64,000 nt of DNA from an uncultured bacterium (GTDB lineage Bacteria; Babelota; Babeliae; Babelales; Vermiphilaceae). Each line of letters opens with the position of its first letter. The first letter of the stretch is position 1. Location: contig OY968764.1 of NCBI GenBank assembly GCA_963695335.1, positions 192,001 through 256,000 of the forward strand. The letters run 5' to 3'. Both the position numbers and the translations under genes were made by a program. The notes under the pieces are model-generated. The model ran no database searches and had not been told where the DNA came from. It saw nothing but the letters and a program-made list of their open reading frames with translations. Below, one piece after another: positions 12,700 to 60,485 of this stretch.

Positions 12700-12825
12700 T
12701 TTCTGATGATTTTTTGCAAATTAGTGGTATAATAATATTATTGTGCGCCCCCTTCGTCAGGCTCAGGATAAACTCCGCTCAGTGAGCCACATGGCGCAAA
12801 GCAATTTGAAATATAAAAATATCAT

Positions 12826-12902
12826 GCGCCCGTAGCTCAGTCGGATAGAGCAACGGATTTCTAATCCGTAGGTCGTAGGTTCGAATCCTACCGGGCGTGC
12901 CA
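12826..12902 (+). tRNA. tRNA-Arg (anticodon TCT)
   Basis: GCGCCCG/CGGGCGT acceptor stem, TAGCTCAG D-arm, ACGGA-TTTCTAA-TCCGT anticodon arm, GGTTCGAATCC T-loop, encoded CCA. Confidence 0.97.
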
Positions 12903-12987
12903 GTCTCCGTTGCTACGCAACTTCGTCTGGCTGCGCCGCAAGAAATTAACTTGGCAACGACAAGAACTTTGATAGCAGAATAGGAGA

Positions 12988-13050
12988 CTGTCCGACGTAG
13001 CGTGAGTCCGAAGAAGCCGTAGGCGAAAACGGATCGAAGGCGTAGACGGA
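12988..13050 (-). repeat. Nested family C palindromic elements upstream of the GIY-YIG gene
   Basis: Reverse complement tccgtctacgcc..[tccgttttcgcctacggcttcttcggac]..gctacgtcggacag resembles the copies at 56644 and 57105. Confidence 0.6.
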
Positions 13051-13099
13051 CCAAGCCCGCAACCACCCAAGACCTCTTTATTATTTTTCTTATTAAATC

Positions 13100-13345
13100 A
13101 TGTTTTACTACGTCTACTTAATACAATCCATCGAACATCCTGACCTTCGATATGTTGGATATACCACAAACCTCAAAGAACGTTTATCTACTCATAATTC
13201 AGGCGGATCATTTCATACCAAAAAAAATCGTCCCTGGAAATTAATCATGTGTTCAGCATTTGAAAATATTGATTGTGCCAAACAATTTGAACAATATTTA
13301 AAATCACAATCTGGAAGAGCTTTCGCTAAAAAACGTTTTTGGTAA
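13100..13345 (+). CDS. Small GIY-YIG nuclease family protein
   Basis: YYVYLIQS...YVGYTTNLKERLSTHNSG...RPWKL...FEQYLKS. Confidence 0.92.
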   Translation: MFYYVYLIQSIEHPDLRYVGYTTNLKERLSTHNSGGSFHTKKNRPWKLIMCSAFENIDCAKQFEQYLKSQSGRAFAKKRFW

Positions 13346-13513
13346 TTTCATTCAATCTTTACAGCAAAATATAACTCTTTTTTCTTTTTGCTCTTCTGTG
13401 CTTACACGTGCAATGATGATCGCTTTCATCAACAAGTTCCTTTTGCTTTTATGTTAACTGTTTTTTGTTGAGGATAGTGTAACAAAAGAAAAATAGATTG
13501 CTATCGTATAAAA

Positions 13514-13552
13514 TAAAAAAGGGTCAGTTACAAATTATTGTAACTAACCCTT
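13514..13552. terminator. Probable intrinsic terminator
   Basis: aaaaagggtcagttacaa...ttgtaactaaccctt hairpin after a convergent gene. Confidence 0.55.
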
Positions 13553-13570
13553 AAATCTTTATTACTTATT

Positions 13571-14191
13571 TTAAATAATATCTTTTGTTTGCAATTGATC
13601 TATTTCTTTTCTCATTTCCCCTGCTACTAAATTAATCTTTTTAGTATTTTCTGGGCGTAAGAATCGATGCATGTATCTATGATAGAATGCACGATTCATA
13701 CAACGATGTTCTTCTAATGCTTCTATTTCCTCAACCATTTGTTGGTCAATAGGCAATACACGCTTAAACAACCGATCACTATCAAGAAATCGATCAACAT
13801 CTATAATTTCTTTGATGCGGCTAGCACCATAATGTCGTGCTGCATTTAATCCATGATCTTTTTCTTTTTCAGAATATTTCTGATACGCTGCGCGTCTTTC
13901 ATCAGTTGGCACACCGGATTTAGGATCATAATCAGGATAAGTCTTGTGTAATATGTTATGGCTTTCCTGTGTTTCTTCAATTATTTCATTAAAAGGACGT
14001 TCTAAACGTTCTCTTGCTTTCTTAAAAGCAGCTTGTTGATTACCACAAATTAATGTTGAAACCATCCAGTGTCTGTTGCTTTTACATTTTTCAAATTCTT
14101 GTCGTGTATATTCATACTGATCAACAGGTGACATTGAATTAATACCCGTGACGAATGAAAAGGAAAGTAAGGCTATAAACTTTATATTCAT
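13571..14191 (-). CDS. Secreted hypothetical protein (tandem paralog 1)
   Basis: Signal peptide + MSP; aligns with 14212..14868 (DQYE.TR.EF.KC, PFNEIIEE, GLN.ARHY.AS). Confidence 0.8.
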   Translation of the reverse strand: MNIKFIALLSFSFVTGINSMSPVDQYEYTRQEFEKCKSNRHWMVSTLICGNQQAAFKKARERLERPFNEIIEETQESHNILHKTYPDYDPKSGVPTDERRAAYQKYSEKEKDHGLNAARHYGASRIKEIIDVDRFLDSDRLFKRVLPIDQQMVEEIEALEEHRCMNRAFYHRYMHRFLRPENTKKINLVAGEMRKEIDQLQTKDII

Positions 14192-14211
14192 AAAAAACCC
14201 TTATTTAAATA

Positions 14212-14868
14212 CTATTTTTTTGTGCTCAATTGATAGATGTGTTGTTCTGCTTCTCCTATTGCCTGATTAATAATTATAGCATTACTTGGACGTAAAAGAA
14301 GATTAATATGATTCATTGTATAAAGCTTATTTTTAGATTGCATATCACGTTCATCAACTAATCGATCTCGTGTAATATAATAATTAGGTTCTTTCATTTC
14401 TTTTATTTTCTGCAAGATTTGCATTTCAATCGGTAGACGATCATCATTTTCCATATAGTCCGACATCAGCATTCCCATGGGCCTAGGATTATCCAACTGC
14501 ATCTTTCTTAAAATAATGCTTGCAATATAATGTCGTGCAGAATTTAATCCATAAGTTTCTTCTGTTTTTAGATATTTCTTACGAACTGGTGAAATAAGTA
14601 AATTTTCTTTATCACATTGATAAGCTATATCTGCTAATATTTTGTCACCATCTTTTGACTCTTCAATTATTTCATTAAATGGATGTGTAAGTTGATTTTT
14701 TGCTTTATTAAAAGCAGATATTTGATCATCACAACCAAACAATGAAGACCAAGAATCTCTGCATTTTATGAATTCTTTTCGTGTATTTTCATATTGATCA
14801 AAAGAAGACATTGAATTAATATCACAAACAAATAATAGGGAGAATAAGGCTACACATTTTACATTCAT
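14212..14868 (-). CDS. Secreted hypothetical protein (tandem paralog 2)
   Basis: Signal peptide + MSS; paralog of 13571..14191. Confidence 0.8.
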   Translation of the reverse strand: MNVKCVALFSLLFVCDINSMSSFDQYENTRKEFIKCRDSWSSLFGCDDQISAFNKAKNQLTHPFNEIIEESKDGDKILADIAYQCDKENLLISPVRKKYLKTEETYGLNSARHYIASIILRKMQLDNPRPMGMLMSDYMENDDRLPIEMQILQKIKEMKEPNYYITRDRLVDERDMQSKNKLYTMNHINLLLRPSNAIIINQAIGEAEQHIYQLSTKK

Positions 14869-14947
14869 AAAAATATCCTCTGTTTTTAAAGTTAAAATGG
14901 ACTTGAATCACTCATGTATTATAATTGTACCACAAATAGAAAATAAA

Positions 14948-16105
14948 TCAAAAGAGCCTTGTATTGAGCGTATCCAATGTTTTAGTCGCTTTAAACTCTT
15001 CAATACACCTACGTATCTCTTTAAATGGGCTATGCATCATAGGCAATGTAATCTTGCCTGCCTCAGCAATCAGCCGATGCCATGATTGTGGCTTATTTTT
15101 GCCAATGATTGTTCTAAGCTCCCGCAATGGCGCTGCTTCTAGGGCTCTTTTAAACCCCAACATCATCATCGCTTGTTTTGGTGTTATAGCAGGATTATCA
15201 AAGCTCAATTGTGCCAGAAAGGCTTTATCATCACTTATTTTAAGGTTCAACAACGGTGAACGGTTCCGTTCAAGCTCATCAATATAATGCAGCAATACCT
15301 TCTTTGCAATCGCAGGCTTAAAGAGCTTCTTAAAGGTGAGGTCCGCAGCTATGTTGAGTTTTTTAAAAAGCTGCTTGATTTTTGCACGTTTATTAAGACG
15401 CACTTCCATGCGCAAAAATTCTAGTTTATGCCTTTTTTGAAATGTCTTAAAAAGATGATGCTGCAATTCGTTATCTTTTTCAATTGCACGCTTGCTGCTC
15501 TGCTTTGCCTTTTCAAGGTCCTTAATTTTATCATAAAAAACAACTTCATACGCGTTGCAGTGCCATTTATAACTATGCCCTTCATTGCGATAATCAGTTT
15601 GATTGGTATCAACAGAAAAGCGTATATTCGCCTCTTTTATTTTGTTGATGTAATGATATGGTGTTGAACCATCAGTCAACGGAATATTTTTGGAATAATG
15701 GATTGCCATAACGGGTGCATGAGCAAGATCTTCTGCGGTTGCAACAACACCCATGGTTGCAAGTGTGGCAGCAAGCTTATCTGTTATTGCTTTAAAATCT
15801 TTATATTGCAGCTCATTAAAATTATTCCCATAAACAAGCTTGGGAAGCGATAATTCTATTTTCAGCAACGGCTCAACAATGCCTTGCATGTTTCTGCAGT
15901 ATGCCAACGTAAGATGTGGTTTATATATCCCGTTTAAGAGTTCCTTTTTGGTACCGTTTTGTTTGGAGATGATGGAGCGATAATGCAAGCGCGCTTCTTT
16001 ATTTTTGCTTGCTTGTAGTACCCAGTGAGCACTGGGTTTAAATTTATCAGGTTCACTGATTTGATACATCTCAGGTGTAAGCGATAAAACTATGGTGTCT
16101 ATCAT
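14948..16105 (-). CDS. Phage/plasmid replication initiator-like protein (gene II/X, Rep_trans-like)
   Basis: MIDTI start, ELSLPK..GNN, FYDK and LRMEVR motifs. Confidence 0.65.
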   Translation of the reverse strand: MIDTIVLSLTPEMYQISEPDKFKPSAHWVLQASKNKEARLHYRSIISKQNGTKKELLNGIYKPHLTLAYCRNMQGIVEPLLKIELSLPKLVYGNNFNELQYKDFKAITDKLAATLATMGVVATAEDLAHAPVMAIHYSKNIPLTDGSTPYHYINKIKEANIRFSVDTNQTDYRNEGHSYKWHCNAYEVVFYDKIKDLEKAKQSSKRAIEKDNELQHHLFKTFQKRHKLEFLRMEVRLNKRAKIKQLFKKLNIAADLTFKKLFKPAIAKKVLLHYIDELERNRSPLLNLKISDDKAFLAQLSFDNPAITPKQAMMMLGFKRALEAAPLRELRTIIGKNKPQSWHRLIAEAGKITLPMMHSPFKEIRRCIEEFKATKTLDTLNTRLF

Positions 16106-16406
16106 TATTGTATCTCATGATGAAGTGCATTTTGTTGCACCTAAAGATACGGGTAAATGCATTTAAATACAAGTCCCGCAAAGCGGTTCTTGATGAACAA
16201 CACATTACGGGACATTTGATGGTGCAAGGCTTCATGGGCCTGCCTTTACCTTTTCGAGTTGTGCGTTTTGTTTTTCTTGTTTTTGTCTTAGCGTTTTTCG
16301 GTAAACGAAAATCTACTTCAACAAGCAGCATGAAAAAGTTACTTACACGCGTTATTTCTTCAAAAGTCAGAACAGTAACATTATGAGTTCGACGTAATCG
16401 AGCCAT
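16071..16406 (-). CDS. Small basic hypothetical protein upstream of rep
   Basis: ORF co-oriented with and overlapping the rep start; no recognisable motif. Confidence 0.35.
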   Translation of the reverse strand: MARLRRTHNVTVLTFEEITRVSNFFMLLVEVDFRLPKNAKTKTRKTKRTTRKGKGRPMKPCTIKCPVMCCSSRTALRDLYLNAFTRIFRCNKMHFIMRYNNDRHHSFIAYT

Positions 16407-16652
16407 ACAATACTTTCGTATTAAAATTTAAAAACTTAAAAATATTTTAAGTATGATGGCGTAAAAATTACTGCAAAATTTGTTTTTTTGATGATGGGAT
16501 TAATTAAGACAGGAATTGTACGCCATGATACCCATGATCTGCATGAGATCATCATAATTTGTATCTATAATCGCGTACATGATATTCCTTTTTTAGAAAC
16601 GTTTTTATAACTATCGGGTGCAATAATAGCAATACATGAAAGATAATGCAAC

Positions 16653-16964
16653 TTATTTTTTAATAATTTCAGGACGATAAATACCTTTATCAACAATTTC
16701 CAATAAACGTAATGCTGAATGTGTCGGAACACGTTTACCCGCTTCCCAAGATTGCACGGTTTTTATACTAACATTGAGAACCAAAGCAAACATGCCTTGT
16801 GAATAATGATTTTTTTCTCGTATCTTTTTTATCTCTCTTGGTTTGTATTCAGCAGGTGGTTCAGGAATTTCTATATATTCTGAATAGAGATCAAGCTTAC
16901 CTTGTTTATGGGCAATAGCTTCTTTAAGTGCTGCCTTTAAATCCTTAGCAAATTTACTGCTCAT
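16653..16964 (-). CDS. HigA-like HTH (XRE) antitoxin
   Basis: IKKIRE..YSQGMFA.VLNVS.KTVQSWEAG.R.P; overlaps the toxin stop. Confidence 0.9.
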   Translation of the reverse strand: MSSKFAKDLKAALKEAIAHKQGKLDLYSEYIEIPEPPAEYKPREIKKIREKNHYSQGMFALVLNVSIKTVQSWEAGKRVPTHSALRLLEIVDKGIYRPEIIKK

Positions 16965-17308
16965 CGTGAATTCCTCCGTAATTCATTCACTAATTCTTTG
17001 AAGTCTTTTTTATCTTCAGCTGTTATATCTTCCTGTTGATTCTTTGCATAAATAAGGAGTAGATATATCTCATTTCTGCTTGTTACATCGTAATAGCATA
17101 CTCTAGATCCGCCACTTTTTCCGCGAGAAGCAGATTTTAATCGAACCTTACGTACTCCATTTGTTCCAGGAATTATATCACCCATCTCTGGATTTCTTGC
17201 AAGCTCTTCTTGAAAATCATCAAAATCTTCTTCCAAGATCTGTCTTTTCTTTAAAAGACTATTGAGGGCTCTGCTAAAATATTTGGTTCGATTTATCTTC
17301 CTTTTCAT
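16961..17308 (-). CDS. RelE/HigB-family toxin
   Basis: NPEMGDIIPGTNGVRKVR...GKSGGSRVCYY...LLLIYAKN. Start MKRKIN fits the upstream promoter. Confidence 0.9.
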   Translation of the reverse strand: MKRKINRTKYFSRALNSLLKKRQILEEDFDDFQEELARNPEMGDIIPGTNGVRKVRLKSASRGKSGGSRVCYYDVTSRNEIYLLLIYAKNQQEDITAEDKKDFKELVNELRRNSR

Positions 17309-17315
17309 ATCATAG

Positions 17316-17345
17316 ACTATACTACGCTGTGGCATACATTGTCAA
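17316..17345 (-). promoter_or_regulatory. Sigma70-like promoter for the TA operon
   Basis: Minus strand TTGACA-18 nt-TATAGT, ending 7 nt before the toxin ATG. Confidence 0.6.
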
Positions 17346-17364
17346 TATTACATCATCTTAAATA

Positions 17365-18342
17365 ACGTGAGTTCGATCTAAGAAAATTTTAAAAAAAAAT
17401 TCATTACGATATCCTTTTAAAAACAATCAAACTTAAAAAAGGGTATTGTAATGAATTTGACTACTATTTTCTACCATTGTGATGAATTTTGCAAATTTTT
17501 TGAAAAAGAGTTTCCAATCCGTGTTCTTTCTGATGGGAAAAATATTAGAAAAAGGAATGGATCTTTAAAGCTTAGTGAAACTATGACGATTGTCATTTAT
17601 TATCAGCAATCTGGCTATAAAACATTCAAGGATTATTACACAAAAAGTGATGAATTAAAATCAGCGTTCCCTGGTCTTACAAGCTATAATCGTTTTGTAG
17701 AATTACAACAAAAAATTACAATGCCTTTAGCTATTTTTACAAAATTATATGCGCTTGGAAAATGTGATGGCAATTCATACATTGACAGTTTTTCACTGTC
17801 TGTAAGTCATCAAAAAAGAATATCTTCTCATAAAACCTTTAAAGGATTAGCCGCTCGAGGAAAAACAAGTGTGGGTTGGTTTTACGGATTCAAAGTTCAT
17901 GTAATTATCAATGGTTGGGGAGAAATTATTGATTTTTGTATCACCTCAGGAAATGTTGTTGATAATAATACAAAAGTTATTGAAAAAATAACTGAAAAAA
18001 TTCATGGAAAAGTTTATGGAGATAAAGGCTATTTGCTTAATTCAGAACTGTTTCAAAAGCTTTACTCTAAAGGCATTCATATTGTTACAAAAATTCGAAA
18101 TAATATGAAAAATAAGCTTATGGATGTTAAAGATAAAATCATGTTAAAAAAACGTGGAATCATTGAGTCTGTTGGAGCAATTCTTAAGGAGGATCTTAAT
18201 ATTGAACATTCACGATATCGTAGTCCAAGATCATTGATTATAAATGTATTTGCAGCTTTAGCTTCTTACGGATTTCGAAAAAAAAAGCCATCAATATACA
18301 AAAAAAGCTTTTTTCTATTGACGGCTTAGATCGAACTCACGT
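17365..18342 (+). mobile_element. IS982-family insertion sequence
   Basis: Perfect 18-bp terminal IR ACGTGAGTTCGATCTAAG (17365-17382 / 18325-18342); TAAATA direct repeat on both flanks. Confidence 0.93.
17451..18329 (+). CDS. IS982-family DDE transposase
   Basis: SYNRFVEL, IDS, GKTSVGWFYGFKVH, GDKGY, KRGIIES, IEHSRYRS. Confidence 0.95.
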   Translation: MNLTTIFYHCDEFCKFFEKEFPIRVLSDGKNIRKRNGSLKLSETMTIVIYYQQSGYKTFKDYYTKSDELKSAFPGLTSYNRFVELQQKITMPLAIFTKLYALGKCDGNSYIDSFSLSVSHQKRISSHKTFKGLAARGKTSVGWFYGFKVHVIINGWGEIIDFCITSGNVVDNNTKVIEKITEKIHGKVYGDKGYLLNSELFQKLYSKGIHIVTKIRNNMKNKLMDVKDKIMLKKRGIIESVGAILKEDLNIEHSRYRSPRSLIINVFAALASYGFRKKKPSIYKKSFFLLTA

Positions 18343-18399
18343 TAAATATTAAAACATTATGATAATTCGCGACATTCGCGACATTCACGACACATTCGC

Positions 18400-18560
18400 G
18401 ACATTTTAGTAAATTTCCGGCTTGATCTTAAATGATGAATACACCGTCTGGATGAAGGTTAAACTTATGGTTATATCAACTTTATCGGTCCTGAACATAT
18501 CAGGTAAGTGGTGCCATACTACGCTCCTCCTCCCGGAGGACTTTTTTTTTACAAAAAAGC
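18400..18560. repeat. Direct repeat copy 1 (att-like tail plus terminator)
   Basis: Aligns with 19459..19620, e.g. identical taaatgatgaatacaccgtctggat and ctcctcc...ggaggacttttttttt. Confidence 0.85.
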
Positions 18561-18703
18561 AAGGCTACGTATGGCGCGGCCAGTTCTTTTAAAGGTTTGA
18601 TATAAATTATAAAAAAGGCCTCAGCATTGCTGGGGCTTTTTTAATTACCAAAATACGGTAAAGTATATTCTATACAAACCAATTCAATACTAAGGTAATC
18701 ATT

Positions 18704-19033
18704 ATGGAAACACATCCACTCGATCAAAATACAATAGAAGAAATTGCTCGACGACTTGTCAAAACTTATAATCCTCGTGAAATTTATTTATTAGAACCAG
18801 AAGGAAGAGATACTATTGATATTGGTATCTTGGTAATTGTAGATGATAGTATGGCTGGACTTCAACAACGATACGCTCTTATGGCAGAGGGACACAAAGC
18901 TCTTATTGGTGTTAAAATTGCCAAAAATATTTTAGTTTATACCAAAGAAGAATTTGATGAATATTCTCAAGATCCATCAACATTAAGCTACTCAATTAAA
19001 AAATATGGAAAACGAATTTATGCACGGGCATAA
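18704..19033 (+). CDS. Minimal nucleotidyltransferase (MNT)-like protein, degenerate motif
   Basis: IEEIARRLV..YNPREIYL...DIGILVIV...ILVYT.EEF...IKKYGKRIY; overlaps a HEPN gene. Confidence 0.75.
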   Translation: METHPLDQNTIEEIARRLVKTYNPREIYLLEPEGRDTIDIGILVIVDDSMAGLQQRYALMAEGHKALIGVKIAKNILVYTKEEFDEYSQDPSTLSYSIKKYGKRIYARA

Positions 19034-19400
19034 ACATTGGCTTTTAATAGCCCAAGAGGATTTAGCCTCTGCTAAGCTTCTTTCTAATGAGCCTTTTATG
19101 ACCGCTCTTTTTCATATTCAACAATGTGCAGAAAAAGCATTAAAGGCCTACATGGTATCCAAAAAAAATTCTTTTATCAGAACTCATGACTTAAATCGAT
19201 TAGTAGACATATGTATGGAAATAAATGCAGATTTTGAAACTATTCGTTTTTTTGCTGCTGTCCTCACTCCATATGAAACAGCTGGAAGATATCCAACTAC
19301 TGACTTTGTAAGATTAAGCATAAAAGAAATCGAAATACTAATTGCGCAATCTGAATTTGTATTCAACTTTGTTATGCAACGAATTAATAAAATAGCTTAA
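19020..19400 (+). CDS. HEPN domain protein
   Basis: WL..AQEDL.SA, FHIQQCAEKALKA, THDL, RYP. Confidence 0.88.
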   Translation: MHGHKHWLLIAQEDLASAKLLSNEPFMTALFHIQQCAEKALKAYMVSKKNSFIRTHDLNRLVDICMEINADFETIRFFAAVLTPYETAGRYPTTDFVRLSIKEIEILIAQSEFVFNFVMQRINKIA

Positions 19401-19458
19401 TAAAATTACTTAAACATTACCGCATTCTGCTCACTAAAAAGTATCGCGACAGAATCAT

Positions 19459-19620
19459 GACATTTTAGTAAATTTCTAGCTTAATTCTAAATGATGAATA
19501 CACCGTCTGGATCATTGTTAAGCTTATTGCCACACTGACTTTATCATTCCTGAATATATGAGGTAGGTGATGCCAGTCTATGCTCCTCCTGTCGGAGGAC
19601 TTTTTTTTTACAAAAAAAAC
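19459..19620. repeat. Direct repeat copy 2 (att-like tail plus terminator)
   Basis: Aligns with 18400..18560. Confidence 0.85.
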
Positions 19621-19777
19621 TCGGTTATTATATCTTTCTGTTGATTGCTAAAAAAATGAGTTCGTGACATTTTATCACGGACTGAGATGTCGACAATTTG
19701 TCGACATCTGAAATTAATGACACAATCTATCTTACTGTGTTCCCCTATCCACAGCGGATTATCATTTGCCATATCCG

Positions 19778-19806
19778 TTGACATAATACCTTTTTCTGTA
19801 TACCAT
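19778..19806 (+). promoter_or_regulatory. Sigma70-like promoter
   Basis: TTGACA-17 nt-TACCAT upstream of the gene at 19874. Confidence 0.6.
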
Positions 19807-19873
19807 TTTACTTGATTATACTTTTGTGTAAGTATACGTTGTAAATTATAATCTCTATAATAAAGGATTTTTC

Positions 19874-20269
19874 ATGAAGATATCACGCATTGCGTTACTT
19901 TCAACAGTTTTTTGTGCAACTTCTATGTTTGCAAGTGAAGCACCCGTAGCAAATGCTGCAGCAGCTCAACCTGGTATAATCTCACAAGTAACTGGATTTG
20001 TAACAGCTCCTTTTGTATATGTATTTAATACAGCTGATGGCGCAGCAAGCTGGATTGCAGATAAATCATACCTTAATACTATCATTGGAAAAATTACTGG
20101 CGTGTCTTTCCTTAAAGGCAGCTGCATTGATAAACCAGCATTAATTGGTAAATCTCTTGTTGCAGTAGCAGCTGTTTATGCAGCTTACAAAGCTTACCAA
20201 GCACTCAATGAACAAAACGTTGACAATGATGATGATATGATCTTTGTTGATGAAGAATATGAAGCGTAA
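19874..20269 (+). CDS. Secreted/membrane hypothetical protein with acidic tail
   Basis: AAGGA RBS, signal peptide, hydrophobic helix, DNDDDM..DEEYEA tail, downstream terminator. Confidence 0.8.
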   Translation: MKISRIALLSTVFCATSMFASEAPVANAAAAQPGIISQVTGFVTAPFVYVFNTADGAASWIADKSYLNTIIGKITGVSFLKGSCIDKPALIGKSLVAVAAVYAAYKAYQALNEQNVDNDDDMIFVDEEYEA

Positions 20270-20292
20270 GTAACGTTAGTTATATAGAAATT

Positions 20293-20326
20293 AAAAAGAG
20301 GAACTTTTTTAAGTTCCTCTTTTTTT
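20293..20326. terminator. Bidirectional intrinsic terminator
   Basis: aaaagaggaactt..aagttcctctttttt between convergent genes. Confidence 0.75.
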
Positions 20327-20365
20327 ATGCACATCAATTACTTGTCTATAATCTCTTTTTCTACT

Positions 20366-21016
20366 TTAATCAAGTTTCGAAGGACACAGCGAAGCTGCTG
20401 TCGTAGAAACTTTACAAATCCACTGCAACATCAAATTTTGTGTTTCTTCTTCAGACAGTTTCCAATCAATATCAGATGCCCGCAGTCTATGAATAACATC
20501 ATACAAACATAATGCAACACTCACCGATACATTAAAACTTTCCACAAAACCATACATTGGAATTTTCACAAACGTATCTGCTTGCGCTAATGCTTCCGGC
20601 GATAAACCAGTTTGTTCACTGCCAAAAATAAATGCTGTTTTTTGATCGAGCGGTAAATTGGGTAACTCATAACAATTGGTGTGCGGTGTTGTTGCAACAA
20701 TCCGATATCCATCTTTTTTGAGCGCAGTGATTGATTCAGTAATTGAACTGTATGCGTGCACATCGACCCATTTTGATGAACCCATTGCAATAGTTGGCAC
20801 AGCCTTAAAACTGTATTTTCCTTCTACCACATGTACATCTTGAACACCAAAAATATCACACGTGCGCAGGGCTGCACTTGCATTATGCTCTTGGAACAAG
20901 TCTTCCAAAACCACGGTAATGTAGCGCGTTCTGTTTGCGATTACTGCTTGCATCTTTTTCCGCTTATTTTCTGTTACGTATGCAAGGAGTTGGTCGATGA
21001 GAGCTGCTTTATCCAT
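20366..21016 (-). CDS. trmH: TrmH/SpoU-family RNA 2'-O-methyltransferase
   Basis: HNASAALRTCDIFG, FGSEQTGLS, IPMYGFVESFNVSVS. Confidence 0.88.
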   Translation of the reverse strand: MDKAALIDQLLAYVTENKRKKMQAVIANRTRYITVVLEDLFQEHNASAALRTCDIFGVQDVHVVEGKYSFKAVPTIAMGSSKWVDVHAYSSITESITALKKDGYRIVATTPHTNCYELPNLPLDQKTAFIFGSEQTGLSPEALAQADTFVKIPMYGFVESFNVSVSVALCLYDVIHRLRASDIDWKLSEEETQNLMLQWICKVSTTAASLCPSKLD

Positions 21017-23432: not shown

Positions 23433-24437
23433 TTACCACTCCAACGAACCGGCCGTTTGATATTCGGTAACGCGTGTTTCAAAGAAGTTCTTTTCTTTAC
23501 TCAAATCAGTTGATTGCGACATCCATGGGAATGGATTTTTAGTGCCATATACTTTTGGCAAATCAATACGTTCTAAACGACGATCAGCAATATATTCAAC
23601 ATATTCACAAAATTGTTCAGCATTAATACCAAGCAATCCTTGTGGGCATGCATCATGCGCATACTGTTTTTTCAAGCACAACTGCTTGTTTAATCAGTTC
23701 AACAATTTCATCTTGGAATGATTGCTGTCCAAACTTCAGGATTTTCTGCTTTAATTGTGTTAATCAAATCGCACCCAAATGCAAGATGAAGACTTTCATC
23801 ACGCATAATATATTCAAATTGCTCACCAACACCAACCATTTTATCTTGACGTTTTAATGCAAGCATCATTGCAAAACCAGCATAAAAGAAAATACCTTCC
23901 ATGATCACATAATAACCAATCAAATCATGCAAAAATTGTTGAATATTTTCTGACTGTATCGGTTTTAAAATTTGGATCAAAAATTGATTTGGTTAAATTA
24001 ACAACAAAATCATCTTTTTCTTTAATAGAAGGAATTGTTTCATACATGTTATAAATTTCATCAGGATCAAATCCCAATGAATCACAACAATAAATAAATG
24101 TATCGGTATGAATTGCTTCTTCAAATGCCTGACGCAACAAATATTGACGACATTCTGGATTGGTTACATGTTTATACACTGTCAACACCAAATTATTTGC
24201 TGTTAATGATTCTGCTGTTGAAAAAAATCCAAGATTCCATAAAATCAGACGACGTTCTGTTTCAGTTAAAACCGTAGCAGATTTCCATTGCTCAACATCA
24301 TTTTGCATAGAAACTTCTTCTGGTGTCCAGTTATTTGCAACACCATCTTTATAATGTTGACGCGCCCAGAGATAACTCATTGGTAAAATTTTATTTGGAT
24401 CGACTGTTGAATTATTAATAATTCCATTTTTATTCAT
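23433..24437 (-). CDS. nrdB: Ribonucleotide reductase beta subunit, class Ic type; frameshifted in this sequence
   Basis: [56 protein letters not shown] spread over several frames. Confidence 0.9.
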
Positions 24438-24525
24438 ATTTTTTTCCTACCGTTCCTCACTTCACAACTCATCAACAAATAAACTCTTAAAATCCTTCTG
24501 TACCTGTCAACCATACAACTGTTTA

Positions 24526-27110
24526 TTACTGACATACTTCACACTCAGGATCAGATGAAATAGTGCATGATTTACCAGCAACAATTGCATCATCCGATGC
24601 AATAACTTCTTCTGTTGCAGCACCAGCAGTTTCAACTGCTACAGTTTCAGCTGCTGCACTTTCTACTGTTTTATAATTACGTTTTTGCGTAAATCCAAAC
24701 TTCTTTGCATCAAGCGTTGATTTTTCAATCTGACTTGCACCAAGTGTACGCAAATAATAGGTTGTTTTAAGTCCAAATTTCCATGCAGTAATATAAATAT
24801 CATTCAGCTTTTTTCCCGAAACACCTTTCATAAACACATTATGCGATTGACTTTGATCAATCCATTTACCACGTGCTGCAGTAACATTAATAAGCCATTC
24901 AATGGATCAATTTCAAAGCTTCTTTATATTTATCTTTTAATCTTTGAGGAATTGCATCAATCATCTGCACATTTCCATCATAATATTTAAGCTGCTCAAG
25001 CATCTCTTGATCCCACAAACCAAGCTTTTTAAATCTTCAACCAAATATTTATTAACAACGGTAAATTCACCACTCATATTTGCTTTAACATAATATTTTT
25101 ATAAATCGGCTCAATGCAAGGGAAACAGCCTGCAATATTTGAAATCGTTGCAGTTGGTGCAATTGCCATAGTATTTGAATTACGCATACCATATTGTTTA
25201 ACATGTTCACGCACTGGAGTCCAATCAAGTTTGCCACCTACGTTGCACATTCAATTGCCATGCCACGCTCTTGTTCAAGAAATCAATGGTATCTTGTGGG
25301 AAAATATTACGATCCCATTTAGAACCTTTATATGATTGCATATGCACCACGTTCTTGTGCAAGTTGTGATGATGCAAAAATTGCATGATATGAAATCATT
25401 TCCATAATTTCATCAGAAAATTCAAGCGCTTCTTGTGATGCAAAATGCAATATCAAGCTTGATACAATGCATCCTGAAATCCCATAATCCCAAGACCAAC
25501 AGGACGATGACGCAAGTTTGCATTTTGCGCTTCTATGGTTGGATAAAAATTAATATCAATCACATTATCAAGCATACGCACTGCAGCTGTCAACCGTTTG
25601 TGCCAAGCATTGCTTCATCAAGTTTACCATCAACAACATGCTGCGCAAGATTAACAGAACCCAAATTACATACTGCTGTTTCATCTGCTGAAGTATTAAG
25701 TGTAATTTCTGTGCACAAATTTGAACTATGAACAACACCTACATGATCTTGTGGAGAACGAATATTACATGGATCTTTGAAGGTAATCCATGGATGTCCT
25801 GTTTCAAAAAGCGGCTCAACATTTTACGCCATAACTGCTTGCGCTGCAATTGTTTTATACATTTTTAATTTCACCACGATGCAGCCATCTGCTTCATATT
25901 CTTCATATCGTTCTTCAAATGCTTTGCCATAAAATGATGCAAATCAGGACTTCTTCAGGAGAGAAGAATGTCCACTCTTCATCATTGCAATAACACGCTT
26001 CATGAACAAATCAGGAATCCAATTTGCAGTATTAATATCATGCGTACGGCGACGTTCATCACCGGTATTTCTACGCAAATCAAGAAAATCTTCAAAATCC
26101 AAATGCCATGTTTCAAGATACACACACTGCTGCACCACGGCGCTTACCACTTCGATTAATTGCAGCAGTAACATCATTAGCAATTTTTAAAAATGGAATA
26201 ACTCCTTGGCTTTCTGTTTTAATAGCTTTAACCATTGCACCAGTTGCACGAATATTGGTCCAATCATTGGCAACACCGCCAGACCATTTTGAAAGCTGTG
26301 CATTATCACCAATAACATTTAAAAATATGACTTAAATCATCTTCAACCGTAGTTAAGAAAACATGAACTTAATTGCGGACGCGTTAAACCAGCATGAACA
26401 ATGTTGGCGTACTTGGCACATAATCGCAATGATGACATTACATGTATAAAAATCAAGCGGCTGCTTCATTTTTATCTGGTTCATTAATACGCAAGTCCCA
26501 TTGCAACACGCATCCAAAAAGCTTGCGGCAATTCAATATATCGTGTTTCATGCTTAAGAAAATAACGTTCATACAGCGTATTAACACCCATATAATCAAA
26601 CAGATGATCACGATCAATACAAAGTTCCTGTGCAAGATATTCTAAATCAAAACCGGCCAAACGTTCATCAAGCAGTTCAAGATCTATACCGGTTCTAATA
26701 CCATTAATAAAAGATTTACGATATGTTTCTTGACTATCACTGCGTGCAATAGAATAATGCGTAACTTGTCTAAACAGTTTTTTTAACTGTAAACGTGCTG
26801 CAACTTTACTATACGCAGGGTCACGTTCAATAAACGTGGTTGCTGCAAGCATCAAAGCATCTGCTATTGCATGAGGAGTAATGCCATCAAAAATATTTTT
26901 TAACGTTTCACTGACAATCAACTCAACATCAACAAAGGATTCATATCCAACGCAGGCCCAGCCAACCGTTCGTCGTAACCGTTGTTCACTTACTCTCTCT
27001 TTAACGCCATCAGGTTTTACCACAGAAAACATATACAAGTTATTTTCTGTTTTTTCACCCGCATCATTTATTAAAAAAGGTGCGGGTGAAACACGATTAT
27101 GCTGTTCCAT
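24526..27110 (-). CDS. nrdA: Ribonucleotide reductase alpha subunit; many frameshifts in this sequence
   Basis: ATP-cone-like N-terminus, [58 protein letters not shown]-terminal CEVCQ. Confidence 0.9.
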
Positions 27111-56946: not shown

Positions 56947-57947
56947 TGAAATCTTTTAAAAGTACAGCTATAATCTTAACGTTATGTATCATTGGAAATA
57001 TAAATACAAAACAAGTAGGAAAAAAAGGAATTACTACCTCGCCCGTAACAACACCCTCCTCCGCTCCATCTTCCGCACAAGGCTCCAGAGGACACGGTAA
57101 AGCTTCCTCTTACGCTAAAGCTACAGAGGACAGGTCGGCGAACAGGCCACAACCTCAAAAACAACTACAACTTCAAAAGGGAACATTCAGAGAATTCCTT
57201 AATGAAATTAGAAATATGAAAACAAATGATATATTTACACCAGACAGATCGCAATTTACTGATAAAGTAGTATGGCTTATAGCTAGCGCAAGAATCTCTC
57301 CTCTTGAACGTTTAGAAACTGATAGTCTATTGCACGCGTTAACGCTATTACATGTCATTGGCACAATAATTCCTATAGAAGATGTACTCGATCCTAACAA
57401 AGAAAAAGAGCATGAAAAAAAAATCAAGTCTTTAACGAATGATTTGAACAAAAGAGTAGAAGCGTTGGTTGAAAAACAAAATCCAACAATACAAGAATTT
57501 CCAAAAGAAAAACCTAAAACAGAAGTAACTAAAAAAGAAGAAAAAAAAGAATTACCGAAATTTGAACAACCACGCGTGACGGAAAAAAACAAACAAATGA
57601 TGCAAGGGCGTCTAGAAATAGAAACTGCATTAAAATTAAACATGTTCATTGACAAGAGCGATCTTGATAATAATGACATGAAAAAAATCTGTACCGAAAT
57701 TGATTTTCTATTAAGAAAAGCCAATCTGGACTATGAACAATTAGGCTCTACAAATGCAGAAAAAATTGCCAATGCTAACATGGCAATCGATATGGTCAAA
57801 AAAGAAATCATAAATAAACTCTCAGAGCTTAAACCAAAAACAATGCTAAAATTAGCCGATTATATACTACTTACGAAACAAAACGATAAAACTATGATAG
57901 AAATTGGAAAAGAACTCAACATGCGTGCGACTGCACAATCTTTATAA
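56946..57947 (+). CDS. Secreted hypothetical protein with in-frame family C elements
   Basis: Leader ...IGNINT-KQ; SSAQGSRGH and SYAKATEDRSANR from 57066-57146. Confidence 0.8.
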   Translation: MKSFKSTAIILTLCIIGNINTKQVGKKGITTSPVTTPSSAPSSAQGSRGHGKASSYAKATEDRSANRPQPQKQLQLQKGTFREFLNEIRNMKTNDIFTPDRSQFTDKVVWLIASARISPLERLETDSLLHALTLLHVIGTIIPIEDVLDPNKEKEHEKKIKSLTNDLNKRVEALVEKQNPTIQEFPKEKPKTEVTKKEEKKELPKFEQPRVTEKNKQMMQGRLEIETALKLNMFIDKSDLDNNDMKKICTEIDFLLRKANLDYEQLGSTNAEKIANANMAIDMVKKEIINKLSELKPKTMLKLADYILLTKQNDKTMIEIGKELNMRATAQSL

Positions 57948-57964
57948 TATAATAACAGTGAATT

Positions 57965-58029
57965 ATCGGGTAGGAGGGGACGATTAGTCCCTGACCTCCC
58001 ACACCACCGCACGTACCGTTCGGTATACG
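57965..58029 (-). ncRNA. Group II intron 3' fragment (part of domain V and domain VI)
   Basis: Nearly identical to 59940-60005; reverse complement cgtataccgaacggtacgtgcggtggtgtgggagg...cctcctacccgat. Confidence 0.8.
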
Positions 58030-58170
58030 TATGAACTTTACAGATGATCTTACATAAGTAAGCATACCACAACCCTTTATTCCCGTAAAAAGCCCCTAAT
58101 TTGATCACGACAAACAGAATAAATAATACCTTCTGAGGCAAATATCCTTGTTGTATCAACATTTTTCATA

Positions 58171-59483
58171 CAGGGCGATCGCATTTAAAACTCTGATTTT
58201 AACGGAAATTTCGAAATTCACTTGATACACTATTTGTATTGGAGGCTGGAGGATAAAGACGGAACAAAATAAAAAAAGTATGATGCTCAAAAAAAACGTC
58301 CCACTTGAAAAAGGAGATTTTTAATGAGCATCATACTGCATGAAATATGGCATAACTACGACCATTTGGCAAATCTTATAGCATGCTTAGAAGAAGTCAC
58401 TGATCCAAGAATTGATCGATGTAAAAAACATGAACTTGTCGTAATACTTTTGATTGCAATTTTAGCTATATTTTCCGGTGCACAAAACTGGGTACATGTG
58501 GTGAGATTTGCACATGATCATGAAGAATGGTTACATGATAAAATATGGCTTCCAAATGGTATTCCATCACATGATACCTTCCATCGTGTCTTTTTACTTT
58601 TAAATCCAAAAGAATTAAAAGATTGGTTAGTGCTTTGGCTCGAAGTTGCACTGCATGATAATAGCGACCATATCGCAATTGATGGCAAAGTCATAGAAGC
58701 TTGGTCTTCAAACAATCCGTTTACGTTAATAAATGCATTCAGTCCTTCATCAAAAATAGTTCTTGAGCAAGCACGTGTTCCAGATGGCAATAATGAATTA
58801 ACCGGTATGAATCGCGTATTAGATACGCTAAATTTAAAGGGAAAAGTAATCACTATTGATGCGATGGGTACAAGAAAAGCATTTGTAAAAAAAATTATCG
58901 CACGAGGCGGTGATTATATCTTGCCAGTTAAACTGAATAATCGTTTACTTTACGAAGATATTGACCTTTTTTTACGTACACTCGCACAAGGTGAACATGA
59001 AGAAATTGCATATAAATATCATGAAACTATCGATTATAAGCATGGTAGAAAAGAAATCCGAAGGTGCTATTCAACCGAATATATTGATTGGATCTATCAA
59101 AAGAAAGAATGGACCAATCTAAAATCAATAACTCTTATAGAATCAAAGGTTGAAGGTAAAAGAAGAAATGCAAATAATATACGTCTTTTTATCAGCAGCC
59201 TACCAGCAGATCCCGAACGTATCTTGGGTTATATTCGTGCCCATTGGAGCATCGAAAACCATCTTCACAGAAGTCTTGATGTCAATTTTAACGATGATCA
59301 AAGAAGCTTAAGAAAAGGCCATGGGGCTCAAAATTTTAATTTTCTCAGTGCCTTCGTTAATTCACTTTTAACCAGAAAAACCTCAGATTTCAGCTTGGGA
59401 AATAAATTACGAAGAGGAAATAGTGACCCTAATTTTATTTTGGATACCCTTATAAATCCAGGGTTTTAAATGCGATCGCCCTG
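58171..59483 (+). mobile_element. ISAs1-family insertion sequence
   Basis: Perfect 21-bp IR CAGGGCGATCGCATTTAAAAC; 9-bp target duplication TTTTTCATA (58162-58170 / 59484-59492). Confidence 0.95.
58324..59469 (+). CDS. ISAs1-family transposase
   Basis: DPR, GIPSHDTF.RV, IAIDGK, NE, TIDAMG, HGRKE.R, RAHWSIENHLH..LDV.F.DD. Confidence 0.95.
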   Translation: MSIILHEIWHNYDHLANLIACLEEVTDPRIDRCKKHELVVILLIAILAIFSGAQNWVHVVRFAHDHEEWLHDKIWLPNGIPSHDTFHRVFLLLNPKELKDWLVLWLEVALHDNSDHIAIDGKVIEAWSSNNPFTLINAFSPSSKIVLEQARVPDGNNELTGMNRVLDTLNLKGKVITIDAMGTRKAFVKKIIARGGDYILPVKLNNRLLYEDIDLFLRTLAQGEHEEIAYKYHETIDYKHGRKEIRRCYSTEYIDWIYQKKEWTNLKSITLIESKVEGKRRNANNIRLFISSLPADPERILGYIRAHWSIENHLHRSLDVNFNDDQRSLRKGHGAQNFNFLSAFVNSLLTRKTSDFSLGNKLRRGNSDPNFILDTLINPGF

Positions 59484-59576
59484 TTTTTCATAGCTATACT
59501 ATTGACAAATTGAAACTCAAAAAGATAGACTTACAAGTGATAGATATCATATTAATCTCAAAAAAGGAATGTTTCC

Positions 59577-59906
59577 ATGAAAAACACAAAAAACTTACTT
59601 GTTACAGGCTTAGCCCTGGCAATAACATTATGTTCATCAATACAAGTATTTGCACAGCTTACCGGGCCTCAACGAATGCTTGTTAAAGAGGAGATGGATA
59701 ATCAAAAATTACTCTATGAAGATCTTGTTGAGCTAAGGAACATAGCAATACGAAATGGTAATAAAGCCAAAGAAAACTACAATCATAATAAGGCAATGGC
59801 ACATTATACAAAAAAACAAAAACTAGAAGAACTTTATGGAACTACAAAGACATATTCTGACTCCGAGGTATCTAATAAAATAGAACGCATAAAAAGTGAG
59901 CAATAA
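59577..59906 (+). CDS. Small secreted hypothetical protein
   Basis: AAGGA RBS, signal peptide, upstream TTGACA-18-TAGACT (59502-59531). Confidence 0.7.
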   Translation: MKNTKNLLVTGLALAITLCSSIQVFAQLTGPQRMLVKEEMDNQKLLYEDLVELRNIAIRNGNKAKENYNHNKAMAHYTKKQKLEELYGTTKTYSDSEVSNKIERIKSEQ

Positions 59907-59939
59907 CTTTAATTCATTCCACTAACATTAAAGTCAACA

Positions 59940-60485
59940 ATCGAGTAGGAGGGGACGATTAGTCCCCCGACCTCCCACACCACCGCACGTACCGTTCGGT
60001 ATACGGCGGTTCATATAAAACTACAAAGTTCTTCATATCGTGTTAAAAGACTTACAAGCCCTTGCTCTCGCCAATAGGCGAGGTCCAGGGCTTTGTGCGT
60101 TTGTGGCGTTAAGGTTTTTTTTTCTTTTCAGGTACTATGACATCTGGTGACTTCTGATGATTTAGCCACTTTTTTTTTCAAAGTGATTTGCCAATATAAT
60201 TAGCGTATCATCAGATCTCCTCGGGTAAGTTCGCTGTCTTTCATTCCATTTACCTGTCTCATTTACCTCCGATAGCCTTTGGCAATATGGATTTTGTTTT
60301 CTGTGGCAAACTCATCAAACTATCGTGGCCTCCTATGAGCTTCGTGTTCCTCAGGCCGGAATTTTGCCGCCAACTTCCTTTAGATTCCGCCTTACGGCGG
60401 ACACCCTTGTCTTAGGCTAAAAGTTACTATTGCCTTCACTTTTCAGGATTTTCACCTTATAGACTTGCGCACATGCCGAGCGCAC
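59940..60485 (-). mobile_element. ORF-less (internally deleted) class IIC group II intron
   Basis: 5' GTGCGCTCGGCATG at 60485 just after a terminator hairpin; domain V GAACCGCCGTATACCGAACGGTACGTGCGGTGGTGT; 3' end CCTACTCGAT; remnant IEP tail LTPQTHKALDLAYWREQGLVSLL. Confidence 0.88.

Follow-up and report, generated by a model that had tools for sequence, protein, structure and literature searches.

Genes and features of the tRNA-Arg(tct) locus

The DNA studied here, called the window throughout, is a stretch of 64,000 nt (C1:192001-256000) from the 1.37-Mb single-contig genome of an uncultured bacterium (G000 in our numbering of genomes); homologs with the names Babeliales/TM6 suggest that it belongs to Dependentiae. 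Behind a tRNA-Arg(tct) gene it contains an island with two short orphan reading frames on the minus strand, 18516-18406 (tail A) and 19575-19465 (tail B), and an original prediction had taken these for the ends of a split integrase left behind by two integrations. Very probably, the tails come from a large serine integrase (LSR) that has its attachment site, attP, within its own 3′ end, and they correspond to its last ~35 residues. We are similarly confident that what is left at the locus are scars anchored by toxin-antitoxin genes, each tail being an attR scar. The locus in the window is an inactive, dead scar without a functional integrase gene, of which only codons 1-16 and the two tails are present.

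From left to right, the locus consists of the tRNA, a trailer, a GIY-YIG gene, LSR codons 1-16, two cargo genes, a replication-initiator-like (Rep-like) gene, a small open reading frame (ORF), a helix-turn-helix (HTH)-RelE pair and IS982, followed by tail A, a trailer, a 109-aa gene with a HEPN gene, tail B, a trailer and a host gene:

12826..12902, plus strand: tRNA-Arg(tct), the target of integration; WHAR*DSNL is read on its antisense strand, and the att core GTGCCA makes up its last 6 nt (12897-12902).
12903..13060 (right limit approximate), plus strand: palindromic tRNA trailer repeat, the probable host-side arm; near-identical trailers stand behind tRNA-Arg(cct) and (tcg) of the same genome.
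13100..13345, plus strand: GIY-YIG nuclease gene (PF01541) that travels with the trailer; by tblastn 93% identical to a gene beyond the attR of G010.
13382..13429, minus strand: serine integrase 5′ stub of the putative element A, codons 1-16 including the catalytic-serine motif; recognised by blastn to the LSR starts of G009, G010, G006 and G004 and by translation.
13571..14868, minus strand: two cargo genes for proteins of 206 and 218 aa, paralogs with 36% identity, with signal-peptide-like starts (by eye) and no convincing Pfam match.
14948..16105, minus strand: Rep-like gene, ~81-83% identical to genes in the islands of G009, G010 and G004 at the same tRNA.
16071..16406, minus strand: small conserved ORF that overlaps the Rep start in the element family; no Pfam match.
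16653..17335, minus strand: RelE-family toxin and HTH antitoxin (PF06296, PF01381), which probably formed the right end of element A; the modules next to the tails of G009 and G008 are 90-99% identical.
17365..18342, plus strand: IS982 copy (NF033520) between the RelE gene and tail A, with a 6-bp target duplication TAAATA; four near-identical copies in the genome.
18406..18516, minus strand: tail A, probable C-terminal 36 codons of an integrase and P arm of attR of the putative younger element; its core, GTGCCA, occupies 18511-18516, and a hidden Markov model of the tails, tail A included, scores it at 69 bits.
18517..18583, plus strand: tRNA-Arg trailer (hairpin, T run and palindrome end), the probable host arm of attR-A; the same type stands directly behind tRNA-Arg(tcg) and (cct) in G008.
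18704..19400, plus strand: two-gene module of the 109-aa gene and the HEPN gene (PF05168), the probable right end of a putative older element B.
19465..19575, minus strand: tail B, probably a second integrase C-terminus and the P arm of the attR that would be older; its core, ATGCCA (19570-19575), matches the tRNA allele of G002, G003 and G009.
19576..19617, plus strand: shortened tRNA-Arg trailer, the probable host arm of attR-B.
19874..20269, plus strand: first conserved host gene beyond the island, found 170-950 nt after the tRNA in G001, G005, G003 and G008.

Sequence and selection of the two tails

The two frames and the antisense WHAR*DSNL read exactly as first described: 27/36 residues are identical, the stop position is shared, and the codons differ by six synonymous and nine non-synonymous changes. 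The surrounding DNA forms a direct repeat of 174 nt (18385-18558 and 19444-19617) with a score of 78. When 12801-20400 was shuffled 30 times in dinucleotide blocks, no score exceeded 14, and the repeat was thus not due to chance. Between A and B, the ratio of non-synonymous to synonymous substitution rates (dN/dS) was 0.18 in the frame given above, which contained 0 stops, and the other five frames contained 1-5 stops per copy. When nine tails were pooled, with pairs that are not independent, dN/dS was 0.25 with 0 stops versus 14-38 stops in the other frames. A Pfam search gave no match for tail A or tail B.

Both tails had been said to begin at the core of the tRNA end. They do have TGCCA in common, but the homology does not start there; it continues for 42 nt past the core with 37/42 positions identical. 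Compared with the tRNA end as it is now, the core of tail A (GTGCCA) is identical over 6 nt and that of tail B (ATGCCA) over 5 nt only. Tails A and B were identical at 86/108 nt, compared to 92 and 90 for the comparisons with the tails of G010 and G008, and each was closer to the tails of other genomes. Because the DNA in front of the tails is tRNA trailer, two other readings of it were dropped: a Shine-Dalgarno start, and a -1 frameshift at the A-run and hairpin that precede the Trp codon.

Two smaller repeats lie close by. A 12-nt motif spans the stop of both tails and has a third copy at 19663-19674, so that three of its four matches in the genome are found here; this third copy may be a binding site or what erosion has left of an older tail. 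Units like GCGACATT are also repeated at 18367-18408.

The tails belong to an LSR that ends on tRNA genes

When the own genome was searched with a loose tblastn, similar peptides turned up at two places, 499976 and 894803. Each is a homologous tail at the far end of an island, at tRNA-Glu or tRNA-Gln, in which an LSR is the first gene and reads antisense into the tRNA; the tRNA-Glu island also carries the Rep-like gene and the small ORF of the window. The same position of the peptide, as a recombinase C-terminus at the far end of tRNA islands, was found in relatives. The LSR at tRNA-Gln (G000:C1:885171-887072) was seen to read 150 antisense codons through the tRNA and over a gene, presumably SpoVG-like, before reaching a stop.

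Twenty regions around tRNA-Arg(tct) were fetched from relatives, and the tRNA was present in 18. An LSR or an LSR remnant abutted the tRNA in 6/18 loci; it was whole in G009, interrupted in G010, deleted in G006 and G004, and from a distant clade in G033 and G026. At four loci (G001, G005, G003 and G008) the next host gene followed at most 1 kb after the tRNA, and the empty tRNA-Arg sites that the original prediction had asked for in relatives were thereby found. The G009 enzyme, at the same tRNA, passed the cut-offs of PF00239 (Resolvase), PF07508 (Recombinase) and PF13408 (zinc-ribbon). In the window, the recombinase body was not wholly absent as had been thought: the stub at 13429-13382 is identical to the G009 enzyme at 15/16 residues (tblastn E 0.003 in the window), and codons 17-482 of the element A integrase are deleted.

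The split was also seen among proteins. Among the 120 best protein homologs, 77 ended within six residues of the Trp at the junction and 30 continued in antisense tRNA; 12 were other cases (about six with a second tail type, by eye, and three without a junction), and one, P0110, was a natural in-frame protein of body and tail (51 bits). Another natural body-tail protein is L169, and L029, L031, L035 and L072 are partial fusions. A region search for full-length proteins of this kind gave 6 matches among 45 candidates, two of which had the tail (P0110 and P0121). At 80 LSR loci from metagenomes, the gene ended on a called tRNA in 58 cases, 57 of these at the same offset, and continued into a tail in one; 16 were other and 5 ran off. 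The called targets were tRNA-Asp (16), tRNA-Asn (16), tRNA-Arg (12), tRNA-Glu (9) and tRNA-Gln (5). Among 214 genomes of the phylum, the LSR was found in 79 and the tail in 77, with both in 57 and the tail only in 20. A degenerate pattern of the arm matched 76/261 genomes versus 17 for a reversed control, so some of the single matches to this pattern arose by chance.

An AlphaFold model of P0110 (71 sequences, few of them spanning the junction) had a mean predicted local distance difference test score (pLDDT) of 87.6 and a predicted template modelling score (pTM) of 0.49. Its fold resembles that of LSRs (4KIS, Z 15.4; Bxb1 9IU2, Z 13.9), with a high root-mean-square deviation from domain movement. 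Alignments with solved LSR structures reached about residue 474-486 of P0110, no further than the beginning of the tail, and the tail was modelled as two extra helices, 484-491 and 501-510. Since residues 1-482 cover the known LSR fold, the split body retains every canonical domain. Loss of the tail may therefore tune the enzyme, as for phage Mx8, and our analysis leans slightly towards this over a loss that kills it.

Geometry of the proposed crossover

The cognate tRNA end and the tail shared at least 6 nt in 11/11 islands, exactly 6 nt in 8 of these, with a range of 6-10 nt. In a permutation test of this sharing the mean was 2.5 islands, and none of 20000 permutations reached 11. The invariant Trp codon of the LSR is the antisense of the tRNA CCA.

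In G009, two identical LSR genes (1446/1446) were found, one at tRNA-Arg and one in a protein gene, which suggests recent activity. The second, identical copy of the element (L060:11100-11250 and L024:4483-4700) interrupts a gene that we take to be M16-peptidase-like from its HxxEH motif, and the insertion may be off-target or may act as a gene switch. At this site, the two junctions and the gene have nothing but AT in common; the host ACCA stands at the right junction and the element GCCA at the left. From this one natural case we infer a crossover on 2 bp at tRNA positions 71-72, with the element giving the discriminator and CCA. A 2-bp crossover is in line with the chemistry of serine integrases.

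Model of integration and probable history of the locus

We propose a small integrative element of Dependentiae that would carry a serine integrase, a Rep-like gene, a small ORF, cargo and a toxin-antitoxin pair. On the circular form, the integrase gene would be whole (~516 aa) and would cross attP at Trp483. Integration would exchange strands over 2 bp at positions 71-72 of the tRNA; the element would bring a new discriminator and CCA, and the tRNA would be restored. The integrated enzyme would then be a 482-residue body ending in a few antisense-tRNA residues (WHAR* in this case), and the last ~35 codons would lie at the far end. This agrees with the part of the original prediction that saw C-terminal pieces split at an attP at the tRNA 3′ end; the analogy with the SSV1 integrase did not hold as far as the enzyme is concerned, which is a serine and not a tyrosine recombinase.

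The claim of two successive integrations also stood in part. Neither tail is the nearest match of the other, since other genomes have closer ones, and the module of each is intact in relatives: the block from Rep over RelE to the tail matched G009 with 83% identity over 2377 nt, and the HEPN module is contiguous with a tail in G010 (72% over 943 nt). These observations argue for two different elements and against a duplication. They do not form a plain tandem, as both tails abut a trailer and not an integrase end. Among 13 tRNA-Arg(tct) alleles, positions 71-72 were AT in nine and AC in two, and GT was found only in the window and in G005. Tail B carries the common AT and tail A the GT of the present allele, which fits B being older. 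The 42 nt behind each tail are of the trailer type that stands directly behind tRNA-Arg(tcg) and (cct) in G008, and a trailer without an LSR end behind both tails suggests that the tRNA regained its trailer after each event. A homologous trailer and GIY-YIG gene lie behind the attR in G010; the host-side trailer at 12903..13060, standing behind the tRNA, indicates that the tRNA end is at present unoccupied and resembles an attB. The nearly empty site of G005 still holds the last codons of a tail, and this remnant points to a long record of insertions at the locus.

In the proposed order of events, element B would have integrated first, with the AT dinucleotide, and would have lost its left part, after which the tRNA regained its trailer. 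Element A would have followed into the regenerated site, now with GT, and later have lost integrase codons 17-482, with the trailer and GIY-YIG gene in their place. Regeneration of the site would have begun with a deletion or replacement as the seed and continued by pick-up and drop-off via alternative attR sites, a form of accretion. An existing unit of trailer, cargo and tail could be carried along by excision via the outer attR and left behind by excision via the inner attR, both of which would be ordinary reactions of the enzyme. Accretion is reviewed in the available text of PMC5704250.

Stacks of tails and alternative explanations

Stacks of tails were also found elsewhere. We picked by hand, from the search matches, 14 loci with at least two intact co-oriented tails each, leaving out stacks with eroded members (G033, G186, G191, G026, G032, G187 and G067). 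In the 14 picked stacks, 21/23 inner tails abutted a trailer or other DNA and two abutted an LSR end. In G040 (L033:3156-8270), six co-oriented attR arms lie by an intact LSR at tRNA-Asp; the arms are conserved for ~40 nt from the core and divergent beyond, only the outermost has a full tail frame, and the modules between them encode ParE, HI1420, DUF433/DUF5615, Gp49 and Fic. G071 repeats the layout of the window without an LSR.

The stacks raise the possibility of a live cassette system, in which the integrase, whether resident or newly arrived, picks up units like 18517-19575 via the outer attR and drops them via the inner attR to form integron-like toxin-antitoxin arrays. Dependentiae would then use the LSR as an integron-like device with attR half-sites delimiting the cassettes, which would move by ordinary attL x attR and attP x attB reactions, and the ~35-residue tail could be a switch such that only excision via a site with a whole tail allows re-integration; we regard this device, too, as a tentative idea. 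It is compatible with the two-element explanation and differs from it in that the sites would be kept up and used. The position of the 21 inner tails, the toxin-antitoxin genes that split the six G040 arms beside an intact LSR, and the layout of G071 all agree with cassettes. However, the stacks were chosen from search matches without the eroded ones, toxin-antitoxin pairs are the usual right-end cargo of whole elements so that addiction alone explains their survival, and the units of G011 carry paralogous genes, as expected from tandem duplication. No same cassette was shown to move between arrays, and both tails in the window remain open over their full length, where nothing points to selection acting on the DNA arm by itself. 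A live cassette system is thus possible, although we find it doubtful.

Three further explanations were weighed against two integrations with regeneration of the site. That a single integration was followed by local duplication of attR and exchange of cargo is improbable; the repeat does extend 42 nt beyond the core with 37/42 identical and includes the same rare trailer type (three matches in the genome), but this trailer belongs to the tRNA-Arg trailer family in G008, each tail is closer to those of other genomes than the two are mutually, and the modules of A and B are each whole in different relatives. Slightly less probable still is a plain tandem integration without regeneration of the site. 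It would account for two co-oriented tails behind one tRNA, and junctions of an integrase end with a tail do exist (G105, G254, L029, L031 and L072), but a trailer directly follows tail A, and tblastn found only codons 1-16 and no integrase 3′ end in the window. An old integrase end exchanged for a trailer exactly at the CCA would itself amount to regeneration of the site. The purifying selection in one frame and the hairpin and T run beside the repeat could suggest a stand-alone small protein or a structured RNA, the outcome that would have spoken against a split integrase from the start. We consider this very improbable indeed, as the tails share no start, the peptide is a natural LSR C-terminus in the body-tail fusions, homologs start at the core of a tRNA end in unrelated contexts, and the hairpin is that of the tRNA trailer.

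Several points weigh against two elements that integrated by way of an LSR with attP in its own gene. No circular form or attP junction was seen for the element of the window or a related one in viral contigs, metagenome loci or reads. The viral contigs contained no relative of the element with P0110 as the query, a search that reaches close relatives only, and the 80 metagenome loci had no terminal repeats. Reads came from a single study, in which four runs contained 8-12% of words; they covered the locus with a few short exact contigs, none of which spanned it, and showed no joints, including the predicted circular junctions, so the deletion stands on the assembly. Natural fusions of body and tail can also arise in chromosomes and are no proof of a circle, and the genomes are related, so the genome counts are not independent. 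Recombination by the enzyme is a prediction, the difference between AT in B and GT is one synonymous change that drift could mimic, and the replacement of the integrase by the trailer and GIY-YIG gene is presumed.

Comparison with known systems

The layout as such has already been published for DsiB of Dehalococcoides, and the tRNA-targeting serine integrase with a self-splitting gene is widespread. According to the available text of PMC3146451, DsiB is a serine integrase on the reverse strand whose 3′ end always lies over attL at the 3′ end of the transfer-messenger RNA (tmRNA) gene; its authors suggested that DsiB is complete perhaps only on the circle or beside the 3′ fragment of an adjacent island. 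The islands at ssrA are arranged in tandem, and 15 lack an integration module. We liken the two systems by their layout, as both have the integrase 3′ end over attL at an RNA gene that ends in CCA, as well as tandem and integrase-less units. In DsiB islands, the target is a tmRNA gene, the direct repeat is 20 bp long and the module includes genes for DsiA, ParB and Mom (same source). In contrast, the elements described here target tRNA genes (Arg, Asp, Asn, Glu and Gln), with 0/58 called targets being tmRNA, and they have a 6-nt core and a Rep-like gene. A tblastn of the own genome with LSR queries, which did not include DsiA itself, returned only two bodies and the stub.

IntP of Mx8 is a tyrosine recombinase of a phage. 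Its attP lies inside the integrase gene, and the new 3′ end alters but does not abolish activity, as outlined in the available text of a review (PMC6070905). In both systems, integration swaps the C-terminus; here, unlike in Mx8, a small element other than a phage encodes the enzyme, which is a serine integrase. The suicidal integrases of the SSV1/pTN3 type have their own gene split at a tRNA such that the fragments flank the element, and they are tyrosine recombinases described as exclusively archaeal in the available text of a review (PMC8371274). They share with the present enzyme the att site in their own gene and the tRNA target. However, the split separates the catalytic part there, whereas the body here retains the full set of canonical LSR domains, and the enzyme is closer to DsiB and Mx8 than to SSV1. 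The LSRs of phages A118/LI, Bxb1 and phiC31 share its fold, domain order and 2-bp crossover, but the alignment with them stops around residue 474-486, short of the tail or just where the tail begins.

Serial integration at tRNA ends, decay to integrase-less units and cis-mobilisation of composites are also features of tycheposons and of the accretion of cis-mobilizable elements (CIMEs), and as in CIMEs the integrase at the present locus was lost while both attR junctions are intact to the base. Tycheposons mostly use tyrosine integrases with long repeats of tRNA fragments (910/937) and LSRs in a minority, according to the available text of bioRxiv 10.1101/2020.12.28.424599. In contrast to both, the scar described here consists of a protein-coding tail and a 6-nt core. 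Compared to integrons, no attC-type palindromic ends were found; the units end in half-sites that code for integrase and contain a tRNA core, and the enzyme adjacent to the G040 array is an LSR.

The Islander report states, in its available text, that serine integrases are not known to target tRNA genes (PMC4383910), and the arrangement is not described in the available text of PMC12424338 and PMC12884075. We found no paper on tRNA-targeting serine integrases of Dependentiae or of the candidate phyla radiation (CPR) in a search to which supplements were outside the scope, and TIGER tables could hold such elements. Since finders of tRNA islands assume tyrosine integrases and long tRNA fragments (PMC4383910, available text), islands of this type would be systematically missed, despite the presence of the enzyme in 79 of the 214 genomes searched in the phylum. 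The LSR appears to use the last six bases of tRNA genes and to write the CCA end with its own Trp codon, and searches for the 36-codon tail offer a precise way to trace past insertions in reduced intracellular bacteria. The enzyme would be a one-gene switch and a candidate tool for near-universal sites if it is true that the tail sets the direction of recombination.

Other genes, trailers and repeats

The Rep-like gene had no Pfam or NCBIfam match. Its Atlas score to clusters in which 26% of members carry PF05144 was 0.98, with recognition below the threshold of the tool; language-model features thus give a lead that the protein may be Phage_CRI-like. The 109-aa gene matched no family, including those of NCBIfam, and by its position we take it to be MNT-like.

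Most 3′ ends of the 35 RNA genes in G000 (e.g. 12903-12945) have a palindromic repeat directly behind them. The end of this repeat can pair with the tRNA CCA and finishes in a pseudo-GCCA, and a GIY-YIG gene often lies behind it. The trailer types seem to swap across the tRNA-Arg paralogs of this genome. A frameshifted tail, a fragment of a Rep gene and a stack of two trailers form another scar between tRNA-Arg(tcg) and (cct), at G000:C1:1066074-1069716. Immediately in front of the GIY-YIG gene of the window, ten bases (13058-13067) equal the 3′ end of tRNA-Met at C1:471388, which may be chance.

Elsewhere in the window, the genes at 23433-27000, which we take to be ribonucleotide-reductase-like, are apparently split into several short ORFs, as would result from frameshift errors in the assembly or from pseudogenes. 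At 57939-60005, direct repeats lie 1975 nt apart, together with a 32-nt inverted repeat (58170-58201 and 59453-59484); the repeated sequence presumably resembles a group II intron end around an insertion element.

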